A stretch of DNA of 32,000 nt, from contig CP064967.1 in the NCBI GenBank assembly GCA_016699265.1, forward strand, positions 570,001 to 602,000, read 5' to 3'. Positions 3,783-12,072 of this stretch are shown here, one piece after another (positions within the stretch are counted from its first letter, which is position 1; the number at the start of each line of letters is the position of its first letter). This DNA comes from Candidatus Saccharimonadota bacterium. Lineage in GTDB: Bacteria; Patescibacteriota; Microgenomatia; UBA1406; GWC2-37-13. Position numbers and translations under genes: made by a program. The notes beneath the pieces are model-generated. The model did not search any database. It had not been told where the DNA came from and saw only the letters and a list, made by a program, of their open reading frames with translations.

Positions 3783-4207
3783 TTCTGCAGATTATAAACT
3801 TTTATAATTTTTTCCTGGGTTCTAACCGTCTTATCTTCAGGATACATTGTAATAGAAATGACGTTTTCTCCAACTATAATGGGTAGCTTAATTGAGAAGT
3901 CACTTTTATTACCGAGCTTCATTACGCTGTCCTTTGCTGTGGATTGAAAAACAAGGAATGATTTACTTTGAGCTTTTCCCTTTATAGTAATTGAGCTCTG
4001 GTCTACAACGGCATCTGTTGATGGCTCAGAAATTTCGAGGTTTTGCGCATTCTGTGACGTTGTGGAGAGCTGTAATTTGCCGGAGTTAGTTTTTATCTGA
4101 GCACCCTTATCTATCTCCATTTCATGGATCTGTCGTACCATCACAAAAGCAACGATAAGACCAAGTCCTACTCCGCATACGATGGCAACAAGTACTTCTT
4201 TCTTCAT
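3779..4207 (-). CDS. Hypothetical membrane-anchored protein
   Basis: 142-aa ORF with an N-terminal TM helix (VLVAIVCGVGLGLIVAFVMV). ATGA overlaps on both sides (4204-4207 and 3779-3782). Confidence 0.6.
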   Translation of the reverse strand: MKKEVLVAIVCGVGLGLIVAFVMVRQIHEMEIDKGAQIKTNSGKLQLSTTSQNAQNLEISEPSTDAVVDQSSITIKGKAQSKSFLVFQSTAKDSVMKLGNKSDFSIKLPIIVGENVISITMYPEDKTVRTQEKIIKVYNLQK

Positions 4208-5051
4208 AGAAAAAGCGAATTAACTACCTTGGGGATTGTATCAAGGATATCTGAGTTATTATACCAGTATCCTCTATCTAAAAAAAGAGCCTCGGCTGTT
4301 TTCTTAAGAATATATGAGGAACACACGCAGCTAGATACAGGATCAGAATGAGTGGTTAACCCTGCAACCAGACCGGCAAGAATGTCACCTGTTCCGCCTT
4401 TGGTAAGACCTTGATTACCACCGTCGATCAGTATCACATCTTTCCGTCGGAAACGAAGTCGGTTATCGCCTTCAGGAGAATAATGCAATGGTACTTCGAG
4501 GCCATCTCCTGAACTACCTTTGCCTTTTCCTCTGTAGATTTATCGGTTATCGAAATCCCAAAGAGCTGTTCGAATTCCTGTTGGTGAGGGGTGACAATGG
4601 CCGGCCTCTTAAGCGTTGCAAGCATCTCCGGCTTCATCATCTGCAGAGATCCTGCATCGATAACAAGCTGCTTGTTCTGTGCTTTGAGAAGAACACGTTT
4701 CGTAAGTTTTTTAGTCTCGTCATTTCGCTCCAGACCTGGCCCAATCAAAATCACGTCGTCCTCAGTTAAATAAGCATCGAGTTGATCTCGATGAACGACA
4801 ATGCCATTTCTAAACTTGGTTTTAAGAGACAAAAAGATCTCATTATTCTCTTCCGTAGAGCAGTAATGCACCATGTCTGCAAAATGCGAGACAACTTCCG
4901 CGGACCACAACGAAGCGGAATGAAATAACTGCGATCCTCCAATAATAAGCACCTTTCCATTTTGACCTTTATGGCTATTTTGCTCAGGTAGATTGATCTT
5001 GCTAAGGAATGTTTGGATGCCTTCTAGTGAGTCTGTACTGACGGTTTTCAA
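4204..5051 (-). CDS. nnrD: ADP-dependent NAD(P)H-hydrate dehydratase (YjeF C-terminal domain type), with one apparent frame break
   Basis: Fragments 4434..5051 and 4204..4488 together give HKGQNGKVLIIGGS ... VTPHQQEF ... ILLKAITDFVSDGK|DVILIDGGNQGLTKGGTGDILAGLVAGL. They join with a 1-nt correction at T-run 4441-4443. TTG start. Confidence 0.8.
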
Positions 5052-7907: not shown

Positions 7908-7998
7908 TGAATCTTTCTCTTATCGAGGGTGAAGGATCTCATCGTATAATATTGAAGTGTTTCTATCTCTAATAGATCAAGGCACAAACAAAAAACTG

Positions 7999-8069
7999 TG
8001 ACCCTACGGGAATCGAACCCCGGTTTGCAGGATGAGAACCTGCCGTCCTAACCTCTAGACGATAAGGCC
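7999..8069 (-). tRNA. tRNA-Glu (anticodon CUC), no encoded CCA
   Basis: The reverse complement folds as a cloverleaf. Acceptor is GGCCTTA/TAGGGTC. The D arm is GTCT-AGAGGTTA-GGAC, typical of tRNA-Glu. Anticodon stem is GCAGG/CCTGC with loop TTCTCAT. The T arm is CGGGG-TTCGATT-CCCG, where the 3' strand is one C short. Confidence 0.85.
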
Positions 8070-8163
8070 ATTTTAGATCCGTTGTTTGACAAAAACAGAC
8101 CTGTCTAGTACCATTTTAGCACATCCCCAAGGCATGATCGGGGATTTATTTTTTATAACATAT

Positions 8164-8884: not shown

Positions 8885-9175
8885 ATGGTCGAACATAGAG
8901 AACATAAAGGTAGACATGTGCGTACAATCATTGTAAGAACACCCACCGAAGTTGAATTTATAACGGTTCAGTCTAGGCTGTCTATTGTCCCAGGTACAAA
9001 AACAACTTCCTTTACTTGGGGAGATCAGTCGGGCCTTCTATTGAATGGTCATCCAACAGAAATACGACACCTGTATGGAACTGTAAAATTTGGAGAACTT
9101 GATCCGGATGGATACGTTAGACTAATATTAACAACTCCGCATCTAACTGCGGTAATATATAACGCACATTTATGA
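8885..9175 (+). CDS. Hypothetical 96-aa protein, first gene downstream of the T-box
   Basis: Intact ORF with AAGGA 6 nt upstream of its ATG. Its stop overlaps the reconstructed lysK ATG (ATGA at 9172-9175). No family recognised. Confidence 0.55.
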   Translation: MVEHREHKGRHVRTIIVRTPTEVEFITVQSRLSIVPGTKTTSFTWGDQSGLLLNGHPTEIRHLYGTVKFGELDPDGYVRLILTTPHLTAVIYNAHL

Positions 9176-11500
9176 TCTGGGTAGATAGAGAAGTTAAAAA
9201 ATCAAAGAACTCAACCTTCCACAGGTGTGGATCGATGATATGAAGACGCCATCTGGTCGTGTGCATGTTGGCGCTCTTCGTGGTGTTGTGATTCACGATC
9301 TTTTATATAAAGCTTTTACCGAGCAGGATGATGATGTGAATTTTAGCTATGTCTTCAACAACATGGATCAGATGGATGCTATTCCCTCATACCTTGACTA
9401 TGAGAAATGGGAAAAATATGCAGGAATGCCTCTTTACAAAATTCCATCACCAGAACAAGGATTTGCTAACTTTGCAGAGTTCTATGCTAAGGAGTTTATA
9501 ACGGTTTTTGAATCAATCAACTGCCATCCGAAAATCATCTGGTCATCGGACCTATATGAGTCTGGTAAGATGAATGACGTTATTCGAGAAGCTCTCGACA
9601 AAGCAGCTAAAATCAGAGAACTCTACAAAACGATCTCAAAATCTGTGAGGCCTGACAACTGGTATCCATTTCAAATAATCTGTGAGAACTGTGGAAAAGT
9701 TGGAACAACTTCTGTTACGGGTTGGGATGGAACAAATGTTACCTATGTCTGTAATCCTGAGATGGTAGCCTGGGCAGAGGGATGTGGTAACAAGGTTCTA
9801 GAAGTCCATTCGATGGAAATGGCAAACTTCATGGAAGGTGGACTGGCCAGCACATTGGAAAAAATTGGCGTAACTATTGAAGGATCTGGAAAGATCATAT
9901 GTCTGCTGGAGGCTCGTACGACCTCTCATCATCGATAGCACGTGAGGCTCTTGGTTACGAAGCACCGTACGCACCCGCATATGAATGGTTTACAATAGGT
10001 GGGGCAAAAATGTCCTCTTCAAAAGGAATTGGAACCTCGGCAAAGGACGCTGCTGCAATTCTACCTCCCGATATCTTAAGATTTTTACTCGTGCGAACTC
10101 CTATCGAACGGTCTATTGACTTCAATCCCTTTGGAGATACTATTCCAAATATCTTCGATGACTACGATCGCTGTTTTTCTGCTTACTTTGACAAACTAGA
10201 AAATAAAGTACCAGAAGGTAAACAAGGCGAGGTAATTGAGGACTTTGCACGAATTGCAGAACTTTCACAGGTTAGACCTCTCCCAATGACAAGAATGTTT
10301 CTGCCAAGATTCAGAACTATCGTTAATCTTTTAAAAACGAGAGTTGAGATACTTGAATTTTTTGAAAAACAAAAAGGATCCGCATTAAATGATTATGAAA
10401 AAGAACTACTTGAGGAAAGAATAATTTACGCAGAAGGATATCTCAAAGCCTACGCAGAGGATGCGGATAAGGTAGAGCTTCTCGAGTCATTACCTGACGG
10501 TCTTGCACTTACCGAAAGTCAAAAAACGTTCTTACAGCTTCTCGGCACCGAACTTAAAAAACTAGCGACCGATGATAGAATGGCAATTCAGGACATTGTT
10601 TTTACAATTCTAAAAGAAAATAATCTTCAGGCTAAAGAAGTTTTCAAGGCATTTTATCAGATCCTTATTGGTAAGGAGTTCGGACCCAAGGCAGCAGATC
10701 TCATACTTGAGTTTGGTGTGAAAACAGTAATCTCTCGAATCGACAAAGTATTTGAGGAAAAAAATATTGATCATCCCGATAAGATAGATTCACTCTTCCC
10801 TATCTTAAAAGACTCTGACCTTTTTTCCATCGACGATTCAGTTCTTAGCAAATTCTCGTCTATTACTGTCGGAGTTGCAGTAATCAAGGGAGTAACGATA
10901 GGTAAATCGCCTCCTGAACTACAGAAGGAGATCGACGATTTTCTAACTCAGATGGGCATCCTTACTACAGAAATGATAAGTAGTTATCCTGAGATAAAAA
11001 GCTACCGAAAGCTATATAAGGCTACCGGTGTCGACTGGCATTCTCGAAGGCCATCACCTGAAGCCTTGCTCAGACGCTACGCCTTAAAAAAGGAGATACC
11101 GTCTATTAATTCATGTGTCGGTGCCTATAACCTGATCGTGATGAAACATAGAATTTCTGTTGGAGCGTTTGATCTTGATCAATTAAGTCTACCGACGATA
11201 CTTAGATTTGCAAAGGAAGGCGAGGATATTCATTTACTTGGGGATGTAGAGCCAACTAAGTATGGGGCAGGTGAATTGGCCTACTTCGATCAGCTCGGGG
11301 GATACAATATTGATTTTAATTACCGCGACTCCAAGCACTCAGCCGTTACTGAAAGAACGAGAGATATCTTAATAAATACGGAGGGTGTATTCGACATATC
11401 TCCAAAGCAGGTTGAGCAAGTGTTGAAGGAGACGATTGAGATTATCACAAAGTACTGTGGTGGTACCGTAGAGAAGGTCGGCATCGTCACCGAAACTTGA
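9172..11500 (+). CDS. lysK: Class I lysyl-tRNA synthetase fused to a C-terminal B3/4 (PheRS-beta-like) domain, with five apparent frame breaks
   Basis: Reconstructed product: MIWVDREVKK|IKELNLPQVWIDDMKTPSGRVHVGALRG ... GCGNK|GSRSPFDGNGKL|WKVDWPAHWKK|IGVTIEGSGK|DHMSAGGSYD ... KMSSSKG (KMSKS-type). Corrections are needed near 9196-9201, 9792-9795, 9830, 9859-9864 and 9893. The last ~230 aa match the solo B3/4 family pattern (RPSPEALLRRYALKKEIPSINSCVGAYNLIVMKHRISVGAFDLD). Confidence 0.85.
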
Positions 11501-11505
11501 CACAT

Positions 11506-12072
11506 ATGATTACACGAGATAAAGCTCTAGAGATCGTTAACTCTAAACTAACTACGAAGAATTTAATCAGTCATTGTCTAGCTACTGAAGCTTCTATGAG
11601 GGCTCTAGCTAAACACTTCAATGAAGATCCGGACAGGTGGGGACTTGTAGGCCTTATGCATGATGCTGACTGGGATGTCACCCGAAACGATATCGACCAA
11701 CATACTCACGAAACAGTAAAGTGGCTTAAAGAGGCAGGAGAAGATGATGAGTCTGTGCTTCAGGCAATTCTGTCACATAATTACAAGAACAATGGAGCAA
11801 ACCCCCCACAAAATAATATGGAGTGGTCTCTCTATTGTTGCGATGAACTTACTGGCTTTATTGTTGCAGTTGCGCTTATTCGACCCGAAAAGAAGTTGGA
11901 GTTAGTAGAAGTGAAATCGATTCTCAAGCGCTTTCCTCAAAAGGCGTTTGCTGCAGGGGTGCATCGGGAACAAATTCAACTCTGTGAAGAAAAACTAGGA
12001 ATCAAACTCGAAGAATTCGTTACCCTCACACTAAATGCAATGAAAGAAATCTCTCCCTCAATCGGCCTTTAA
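11506..12072 (+). CDS. HD-domain metal-dependent phosphohydrolase
   Basis: The H...HD signature (ISHCLATEA ... GLMHDADWD) in an all-helical small protein. ATG 11506 is preferred over the TTG at 11497 that overlaps the lysK stop. Confidence 0.7.
   Translation: MITRDKALEIVNSKLTTKNLISHCLATEASMRALAKHFNEDPDRWGLVGLMHDADWDVTRNDIDQHTHETVKWLKEAGEDDESVLQAILSHNYKNNGANPPQNNMEWSLYCCDELTGFIVAVALIRPEKKLELVEVKSILKRFPQKAFAAGVHREQIQLCEEKLGIKLEEFVTLTLNAMKEISPSIGL

Follow-up and report, generated by a model that had tools for sequence, protein, structure and literature searches.

A CtdA-type B3/4 domain fused to the class I lysyl-tRNA synthetase of Microgenomates, a probable tethered editor of mischarged tRNA(Lys)

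In a 32,000-nucleotide stretch of the Candidatus Saccharimonadota bacterium contig CP064967.1 (the window), we identified a gene that joins the class I lysyl-tRNA synthetase (LysRS) of Microgenomates (CPR) to a CtdA-type B3/4 module of about 230 aa, which probably serves as a tethered editor of mischarged tRNA(Lys). The LysRS-B3/4 architecture itself is real and is conserved across hundreds of genomes. The features of the gene and of its downstream neighbour are given below, with residues numbered as in the protein of the nearest relative (P0001/L001).

9172..11500, + strand: whole class I LysRS-B3/4 gene, 777 codons once frame-corrected (tblastn and DNA alignment with P0001/L001, 98% amino acid identity)
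9172..10750, + strand: LysRS body, comprising the Rossmann-fold catalytic domain (HVGA as the HIGH motif; KMSSS from 10007) and the C-terminal anticodon-binding helices
9195..9889, + strand: five single-base deletions relative to L001, within the first 245 codons (DNA alignment)
9899..11500, + strand: unbroken 533-codon ORF in which KMSSS, the anticodon-binding domain and the B3/4 domain are physically joined
10751..10810, + strand: flexible linker of poor conservation (P0001 residues about 529–548)
10811..11497, + strand: CtdA-type B3/4 domain, about 229 aa (Pfam B3_4 match at 11003–11461)
11120..11122, + strand: GGT (Gly), D652G in P0001 numbering, replacing the otherwise invariant Asp of V-D-x-Y-N
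11129..11131, + strand: invariant Asn N655, equivalent to CtdA N105 and PheRS N254, which positions the catalytic water (alignments)
11162..11170, + strand: G-A-F, with Gly equivalent to CtdA G116 (which must be small) and Phe in place of CtdA E118
11306..11329, + strand: N-I-D-F-N-Y-R-D, with N714 for CtdA C166, D716 for R168 and D721 for Q173
11375..11377, + strand: Asn N737 for CtdA I189, invariant across the fused family
11497..12072, + strand: HD (HDIG) hydrolase gene, 191 aa, with a 4-nt overlap with the LysRS stop (Pfam HD, E 3e-9)

The synthetase part was assigned to class I, as residues 3–527 of P0001 matched the TIGR00467 lysS_arch model with 356.7 bits (cut-off 147.55) and the P0001 model superposed on the P. 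horikoshii LysRS 1irx (E 1e-34, TMt 0.78). The HIGH-type motif PSGRVHVGALRG and KMSSSKG were both readable directly in the sequence. Pfam matches to PF01921 were obtained on both ORF pieces (E 8e-39 and 1e-22), with a match to PF19269 as well, and the ORF at 9899–11500 contained tRNA-synt_1f (aa 2–103, including KMSSSKG), Anticodon_2 (aa 204–284) and B3_4 (PF03483, aa 369–521). Canonical class I LysRSs (1irx; TIGR00467) share with the gene the body residues 1–528, the HIGH-type and KMSSS motifs and the alpha-helical anticodon-binding domain, but they stop after the anticodon-binding helices without an editing domain, whereas the window gene adds the B3/4 domain. The linker showed no conservation across homologues, its residues 531–540 had a pLDDT below 50 in the full-length AF2 model, and relatives without the domain end exactly at this linker. 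A preliminary description made from the sequence had placed a B3/4 domain at 10790–11500, after a complete LysRS body. These coordinates agree with the domain and are here refined into linker and domain proper, every peptide string quoted was found in the sequence, and the fusion was borne out, with no stop between the synthetase body and the B3/4 domain in the window or in 74 of 80 related loci. The body is complete only after frame correction, as that description had implied, while the first 245 codons (about one third) are broken into four frames as they stand.

The C-terminal domain matched Pfam B3_4 (PF03483) over positions 2–174 of the 174-position profile (74 bits, cut-off 29.3, E 1.4e-20). 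Its structure predicted alone with AF2 was a confident B3/4 fold (pLDDT 96, pTM 0.92), and the top 35 Foldseek matches of this model were all CtdA, PheRS beta or other B3/4-domain proteins. The model aligned with CtdA (9f7e and 9mkl) over the full length with TM of 0.80–0.83 and E 1e-16, with the CtdA-specific helical insert present (TMq 0.80, TMt 0.82 over 234 columns), and with PheRS beta with a TMq of about 0.6. Searches with a domain profile gave E 3.2e-36 for 9f7e, 1.6e-34 for 9mkl and 9e-12 for PheRS beta, and the PheRS editing domain was rejected as the nearest relative because CtdA was far closer. The Pfam search and the structure prediction, both proposed as checks in the preliminary description, thus concurred with the fold search on its call of a B3/4 domain, and the profile searches agreed with the resemblance it had seen to the solo B3/4 family rather than to PheRS beta proper.

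A survey of class I LysRS architectures, also suggested there, found PF01921 and PF03483 together in all 120 homologues listed of 944 matches, each of about 770 aa. Relatives were encoded in 443 GTDB species genomes, and the domain lay in the same ORF in 74 of the best 80; these 74 were mostly Microgenomates, and the fusion was also found in Anaerolineae, Aggregatilineales and Gracilibacteria (Chloroflexota and Gracilibacteria). That the fusion is an artefact, either because a sequencing error merged two neighbouring genes or because the HMM match arose by chance, has a negligible probability: indel errors do occur upstream in the window, but the single ORF recurs in these independent genomes and in every homologue listed, and the Pfam match spans the full profile and comes with a high-confidence fold. 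Chance or mis-assembly was rejected as the origin of the fusion on this recurrence. The six close relatives without the domain among the best 80 genomes had cores 62–78% identical, and an alignment of fused enzymes with these six yielded no core LysRS positions that consistently separated the two groups; the domain is therefore dispensable for aminoacylation, a point that weighs against the editing reading. The accessible parts of the literature on CtdA, tRNA-deacylase mining, release-factor origin and mistranslation, where ‘B3/B4’ is unsearchable as a term, held no mention of any fusion of B3/4 to LysRS or another synthetase, and the LysRS-B3/4 arrangement has apparently never been described before.

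The broken reading frame in the window results from deletions after 9195 (A7 to A6), 9790 (CC to C), 9831 (TT to T), 9858 (A7 to A6) and 9889 (loss of T) relative to L001, and a sixth deletion lies in the tRNA-Glu gene. Assembly error, rather than decay, is the most likely source of the five frameshifts, because codon changes relative to L001 were 79 synonymous and 11 non-synonymous overall and the AlaRS and NAD(P)HX dehydratase genes in the same stretch are likewise split. There is a small chance that the gene was recently inactivated in this genome and is now a pseudogene, in which case the frameshifts and the Asp loss would be real and nothing functional would be encoded. This would fit the five 1-nt deletions inside 700 nt, of which together with the sixth only three sit in runs of at least four bases, and the D652G change, as the Asp was kept in 74 of 77 related domains and Gly at this position was unique to the window. 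It is opposed, however, by the 16 synonymous changes to 1 non-synonymous change in the frameshifted 245 codons, by the fact that all indels relative to L001 are deletions on the window side, one even in a tRNA gene, and by the splitting of nearby genes, since a reduced genome would hardly have lost AlaRS as well as LysRS. The window's own copy, frameshifted and with an Asp-to-Gly change three residues before the key Asn, could be defective.

Both the essential Asn (N105) and the small Gly (G116) of CtdA were kept and were invariant in 65 homologues. The N105A mutant of CtdA is inactive, C166 is strictly conserved in CtdA-1, and mutational data exist for N105, G116, Q173 and C166 (PMC12449066). 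The CtdA specificity residues E118, C166, Q/E173 and I189 were replaced by F, N, D and N, so the domain is no CtdA orthologue in specificity, and within the LysRS-fused family this set is equally invariant. Conservation of the B3/4 domain equalled that of the synthetase core; its invariant residues include R628, P629, S630, P631, E632, N655, G666, F668, N714, R720, D721 and N737, and the basic motif W-H-S-R-R-P-S-P-E-A-L-L-R-R was invariant in fused domains. The editing-site residues of E. coli PheRS are R244, N254, H265, G318 and E334 (PMC12449066), of which only the Asn is common to both, H265 being Gly in the window domain. As judged from the alignments, the specificity residues of the pocket are neither PheRS-like nor CtdA-like. 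The proofreading idea of the preliminary description survives as the best-supported reading, but not with a PheRS-like pocket.

In bacterial PheRS beta, the B3/B4 region is a domain that edits in cis, hydrolysing Tyr-tRNA(Phe) or m-Tyr-tRNA(Phe). It shares the B3/4 fold, PF03483 and the conserved Asn with the window domain (3pco, 1pys), but it is embedded between B1/2 and B5, is packed on the alpha subunit and has inserts unlike those of the window domain, which is terminal and flexibly linked. CtdA shares the full-length fold, the size of about 230 aa, N105, G116 and the R..P.S.EAL..R motif, but it is a free-standing canavanyl-tRNA(Arg) deacylase acting in trans (PMC10018355, PMC12449066), whereas the window domain is covalently fused to LysRS. 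Its R167-R168-W169 are I-D-F in the window domain, and the identity is only 15–19%; some relatives of the window domain are, like CtdA, free-standing. As the partner is LysRS and not ArgRS, the substrate would be expected to differ from that of CtdA.

We propose that the domain hydrolyses tRNA(Lys) bearing a near-cognate or non-protein amino acid by post-transfer editing and would leave Lys-tRNA(Lys) intact, where the amino acids of candidate substrates may be ornithine, thialysine, Arg-like analogues, Ser or Thr. This reading is favoured because the CtdA Asn and Gly are kept, the domain is strongly conserved, the same sub-type occurs on class II LysRS and ArgRS fusions offer a precedent. Its position counts against editing, as the domain is attached to LysRS1 where the anticodon binds, and the CCA end of a tRNA bound to the same polypeptide lies far away. 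The full-length AF2 model (pTM 0.58) had no fixed interface and no reliable inter-domain geometry. Given the flexible linker at the anticodon-binding end, the domain would probably act like a tethered trans-type editor that recaptures released aminoacyl-tRNA, as opposed to one served by a fixed shuttling channel.

The same location, beside the anticodon-binding domain and on a flexible linker, would also suit a module without catalytic activity that binds tRNA, or just the 3' end, and makes LysRS1 bind tRNA(Lys) more tightly. Class I LysRS requires tRNA for lysine activation, so such a role could matter. Other points in its favour are the invariant basic motif, the annotation of B3/4 as a tRNA-binding domain and the non-conservative replacement of three of the four CtdA specificity residues. 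We nevertheless regard this explanation as unlikely, as neither the hydrolysis-essential Asn nor the small Gly varies, the pocket is as invariant as a catalytic site would be, close relatives without the domain have no change that would make up for its absence and the same sub-type is also free-standing. Moreover, some B3/4 fusions (P0145, P0171) additionally carry a separate, dedicated tRNA_bind domain, which argues against B3/4 as a mere tRNA binder.

The link of the proposed editing to lysine comes from a comparison with other synthetase fusions. The signature NGFD-N[ILM]D[FY]-D-N was found in 16 cluster representatives, namely 8 LysRS1-fused, 6 LysRS2-fused, 1 likely fragment and 1 free-standing protein (P0125/L082), the last of which speaks for an autonomous module. 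The class II LysRS partners exceeded the lysS_bact cut-off and carried B3/4 at either the N- or the C-terminus, and the LysRS1- and LysRS2-fused domains interleaved in a neighbour-joining tree. ArgRS-fused B3/4 domains, on the other hand, bear the CtdA signature NGED-CRRW-E; the specificity residues therefore vary with the synthetase to which the domain is fused, and these fusions provide a precedent for a module carried by the very synthetase that it corrects. YbaK-like and B3/4 modules were also observed together on TyrRS and TrpRS (P0251, P0240). An exact 17-member clade of the first neighbour-joining tree was recovered in 5 of 60 bootstraps and was dropped as not robust, and the larger Lys-associated clades reached bootstraps of only 47–49%, which counts against the lysine-editing reading. 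Because of these weak bootstraps, the case rests on signatures and architectures and not on monophyly.

An active deacylase could also be directed at something other than errors on tRNA(Lys), such as general trans-editing, canavanyl-tRNA(Arg) hydrolysis by an enzyme carried on LysRS only for co-expression, or regulatory hydrolysis of Lys-tRNA(Lys). The CtdA family works in trans (PMC10018355, PMC12449066), and the flexible tether and the N- or C-terminal placement in LysRS2 fusions show that the domain need not be held in a set geometry relative to the synthetic site. We consider such a target improbable, however, because the Lys-type signature occurs almost exclusively on LysRS of either class, and the retention of the CtdA signature by ArgRS-fused copies shows that the specificity residues follow the partner.

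The HD protein encoded downstream has the HD fold with the H...HD...H ligands H26, H55, D56 and H94 invariant, and it matched the HD domain that follows B3/4 in the P0145 fusion over the full length (36% identity, E 1e-30). An HD gene was found downstream of or fused to LysRS-B3/4 in 21 of 81 loci, while the protein is mostly a free-standing and widespread 188-aa CPR protein. Its nearest solved relatives are the YqeK Ap4A hydrolases (8jja, E 3e-6; 8wmy, E 5e-5), matched over about 50–110 residues only. Judging from gene order and sequence comparison, its link with LysRS is real but partial, and the HD hydrolase is a possible functional partner of LysRS-B3/4. Upstream, a 96-aa ORF (8885–9175) was found conserved only in L001 and is therefore probably no partner, and Rfam and tRNA scans of the window gave nothing beyond tRNA-Glu. 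Taking the fusions together, we give roughly even chances to the broader proposition that a lysine-specific CtdA-like B3/4 clade, repeatedly fused to both LysRS classes (in CPR, Chloroflexota and an Asgard archaeon) and in several lineages accompanied by a YqeK-like HD or DUF2000 domain, is an unrecognised LysRS proofreading module.

To our knowledge, LysRS is the sole synthetase that occurs in two unrelated classes, and descriptions of it include no post-transfer editing domain. Its proofreading is of the pre-transfer kind. In a 2024 review, LysRS appears with the synthetases that proofread but is absent from the list of those that have an editing domain (PMC11415595). The INS-superfamily trans-editing factors (ProXp-ST1/ST2, YbaK) set a precedent for the post-transfer clearing of LysRS errors by a separate hydrolase (PMC11415595), but their fold is unrelated to B3/4 and they are not fused to LysRS. 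The LysRS-fused B3/4 domain is predicted to be an enzyme that should remove mis-acylated tRNA(Lys); if so, lysine would for the first time have a domain dedicated to post-transfer editing. The fusion would then also exemplify a broader rule, as yet undescribed, by which CtdA-type modules are carried in cis on the synthetases whose errors they correct (ArgRS, LysRS, TyrRS and TrpRS), and the CtdA family would extend from canavanine and Arg to synthetase-linked specificities legible at four pocket positions. N655, F668, N714, D721 and N737 are defined residues for mutants. The conservation of a hydrolytic-type module on class I LysRS, together with the same pocket signature on class II LysRS, implies that fitness in these lineages really does suffer from some species of mis-acylated tRNA(Lys). 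Many CPR bacteria rely on scavenged metabolites, and for them the fusion suggests that amino-acid analogues exert selection on translation.

Judged by the 777-aa homologue P0001 (98% identical) and its contig L001, the LysRS gene of the window should span 9172-11500; it comprises the following parts.

Parts of the LysRS-B3/4 gene (domains from Pfam)
9899-11500, + strand: LysRS-B3/4 ORF, 533 aa, unbroken
aa 2-103 of ORF 9899-11500, + strand: PF01921, C-terminal part of the class I LysRS catalytic domain, with KMSSSKG
aa 204-284 of ORF 9899-11500, + strand: PF19269, anticodon-binding domain
aa 369-521 of ORF 9899-11500, + strand: PF03483 (B3_4), complete, profile positions 2-174 of 174
upstream ORF 9225-9938, + strand: N-terminal part of PF01921, in a different frame

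The full-profile B3_4 match scored 74 bits (gathering score 29.3; E 1.4e-20), far above chance, and confirmed the B3/4 tail that the preliminary description had read at 10790-11500; its coordinates and peptide strings were right, the ORF being continuous. The B3/4 family, LysRS and the concept of a cis editing domain are already known, and Pfam annotations imply the architecture; we found no description of it in the searchable literature, including the CtdA papers, which also do not mention B3/4 fusions to ArgRS, TrpRS or TyrRS. In a review, LysRS appears in the list of synthetases that proofread, but is absent from the list of those that have an editing domain (PMC11415595).

Relative to P0001 and L001, five single bases are missing from the gene (after 9195, 9790, 9831, 9858 and 9889). 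All six indels against L001 are deletions on the window's side, one of them within a tRNA gene, and two other genes nearby are split into successive pieces in different frames.

Other disrupted genes near LysRS
7998-8070: tRNA-Glu, one G missing near 8007 relative to L001
5159-6100 and 6090-6959, + strand: AlaRS, split
4437-5051 and 4207-4488, - strand: NAD(P)HX dehydratase, split

Taken at face value, the frameshifts would make the gene a pseudogene in this genome, which we consider quite improbable. The frame-corrected gene differs from L001 by 79 synonymous and 11 non-synonymous codons, and its first 245 codons, the frameshifted part, by 16 and 1, respectively; purifying selection has therefore acted on it almost until the present. 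It is also implausible that AlaRS and LysRS should be decaying at the same time. The split genes and the tRNA-Glu deletion point to a locally error-rich assembly at ∼4.4-9.9 kb, and assembly error is the likely origin of the LysRS frameshifts, as far as the sequence tells. The GGT at 11120-11122 calls for the same caution: it encodes Gly three residues ahead of the catalytic-type Asn, where 74 of 77 related domains carry Asp in a V-D-x-Y-N motif, and is either an error or a damaging variant.

A mosaic patch at 10555-10820, covering the last LysRS helices, the linker and the beginning of the B3/4 domain, differs from the otherwise 99.5% identical L001 by ∼30%, with nearly all changes in third codon positions, and resembles a tract acquired by recombination with a diverged strain. 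A 96-aa ORF (8885-9175) overlapping the LysRS start by 4 nt had no family match and was conserved in the nearest relative L001 only.

That the fusion itself is an artefact is extremely unlikely. The junction sits within the intact portion of the gene, outside the frameshifts, and PF01921 and PF03483 occurred together in all of the 120 homologues listed out of 944 matches to the ORF. Of these, 117 were 750-805 aa long and three were shorter, two being named partial by the source; the named ones were plain ‘lysine--tRNA ligase’ from Microgenomates, Roizmanbacteria or Patescibacteria. Among GTDB contigs (one genome per species), relatives were encoded in 443 genomes, and 74 of the 80 best loci had the synthetase core and B3/4 in a single ORF, with taxon-named titles mostly of Roizman-, Gottesman-, Levy- or Daviesbacteria and single ones of CPR3 or other groups. 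Anaerolineae, Aggregatilineales and Gracilibacteria contributed fusions of greater divergence, with 28-35% domain identity. Many MAG records clearly carrying Microgenomates genes (L002, L003, L005 and others) are titled ‘uncultured Gammaproteobacteria bacterium’, which look like placeholder or wrong labels.

Across 65 sequences, the B3/4 domain matched the catalytic core in its degree of conservation and had ∼30 invariant positions. Yet in six close relatives with 62-78% identical cores (L030, L031, L034, L063, L064 and L073) the class I LysRS stops cleanly after the last helix, exactly where the linker starts, and no core residue tracked the presence or absence of the domain between the fused proteins and these six. 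The domain is therefore a modular, dispensable but selected accessory. One Roizmanbacteria locus (L036, 3905-7231) encodes a LysRS with two tandem B3/4 domains, the first with a divergent pocket signature, and another (L011, 4595-4780) has an additional partial B3/4 ORF ∼1 kb downstream of the LysRS gene.

To our knowledge, CtdA is the sole free-standing B3/4 protein with a characterised function, which is the hydrolysis of canavanyl-tRNA(Arg) (PMC10018355; PMC12449066). While single-sequence searches were marginal for both PheRS beta (E 5e-3) and CtdA (E 0.34), a profile of 28 family members matched CtdA of P. canavaninivorans (9f7e, E 3.2e-36) and S. enterica (9mkl, 1.6e-34) ahead of PheRS beta (9e-12). 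The isolated domain model (pLDDT 96, pTM 0.92) superposed on CtdA along its full length (TM 0.80-0.83, E 1e-16), whereas PheRS beta B3/4 domains reached a TMq of only ∼0.6. In the full-length model (pLDDT 87, pTM 0.58), the body fitted P. horikoshii LysRS (1irx) and linker residues 531-540 were disordered.

CtdA pocket residues and their counterparts in the window (numbering fixed by HMMER alignments to 9mkl; chain numbering is native + 2)
N105: N, 11129
G116: G, 11162
E118: F, 11168
C166: N, 11306
Q173: D, 11327
I189: N, 11375

In CtdA, N105A is inactive, the PheRS counterpart Asn positioning the catalytic water; a small residue is obligatory at G116, Q173 is needed with Glu tolerated, and C166 tunes specificity (PMC12449066). 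The counterparts of N105 and G116 are kept and the other pocket residues replaced, and thus the Lys-fused family combines a catalytic scaffold with an invariant specificity set of its own: it lacks the E118 and R-R pair of CtdA and gains Phe, Asn and two Asp. The signature NGFD-N[ILM][DY]F-D-N was present in 69 of 77 domain copies from the related loci and the window, most others being one position off. With the catalytic scaffold retained, a non-catalytic tRNA-binding module is an unlikely reading of the domain.

We then searched the domain against 1.84 billion cluster representatives, which gave 1,756 matches, and, taking the best 150, sorted 124 full-length domains by architecture.

Architectures of the 124 classified domains
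Class I LysRS fusions: 23
Class II LysRS fusions: 14
ArgRS fusions: 5
TyrRS and TrpRS fusions, each with a YbaK-like domain: 2
With tRNA_bind: 2
B3/4-DUF2000 (probable class II LysRS fusion fragment): 1
Free-standing: 77

The class II LysRS partners, one from a Promethearchaeota MAG, exceeded the lysS_bact cut-off and carry B3/4 C-terminally in most cases and N-terminally in one. Two of them (P0139, P0138) have an extra C-terminal DUF2000 (PF09391), presumably of peptidyl-tRNA-hydrolase-like fold. The TrpRS and TyrRS fusions are P0240 and P0251.

The exact Lys-type signature was found in 16 representatives: eight fused to LysRS1, six to LysRS2, one likely fragment and one truly free-standing protein (P0125, 229 aa), whose contig L082 has no LysRS nearby. 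Domains from LysRS1 and LysRS2 fusions interleaved in an NJ tree, the enclosing clades having just 47-49% bootstrap. Other LysRS fusions had the signatures NAYD-C.D.-D and NGDD-CRRW-E, so fusion arose more than once. ArgRS-fused domains (P0215, P0220, P0225, P0228 and P0239), located at the ArgRS N-terminus and once in tandem, had NGED-CRRW-E, the CtdA signature with the Glu variant reported for the active C. perfringens enzyme (PMC12449066). The specificity residues therefore follow the partner synthetase, which is the strongest argument that the LysRS-fused module would act on LysRS products; a deacylase directed at something other than Lys, or serving regulation, appears rather improbable.

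A 191-aa HD (HDIG) hydrolase gene (11497-12072) overlaps the LysRS stop. Along its entire length, its product shares 36% identity (E 1e-30) with the HD domain following B3/4 in P0145 (LysRS2-tRNA_bind-B3/4-HD); P0133 is LysRS2-B3/4-HD. Of 81 loci, 18 had an HD homologue downstream of LysRS and three more (L048, L076 and L078) a LysRS1-B3/4-HD fusion, the protein being otherwise widespread free-standing in CPR. The family profile best matched YqeK Ap4A hydrolases (8jja, 3e-6), weakly and over partial length only; that the HD protein may hydrolyse Ap4A, or adenylates that LysRS produces, is a lead rather than a finding.

Candidate substrates of the B3/4 domain include ornithine, thialysine, Arg-like analogues, homocysteine or homoserine, and Ser or Thr. 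Charging with Ser and with Thr has been reported as an error of LysRS that INS-family factors clear (PMC11415595). The linker is flexible, the domain is attached at the anticodon-binding end, its place in class II fusions varies between the N- and the C-terminus, and it also exists as a free-standing protein, all of which fits an autonomous tethered module that would re-sample released aminoacyl-tRNA instead of using a fixed CCA-shuttling channel. In sum, the LysRS B3/4 domain is probably a CtdA-like deacylase on a tether, which clears tRNA(Lys) of a non-cognate amino acid; this is the most likely of the readings considered.
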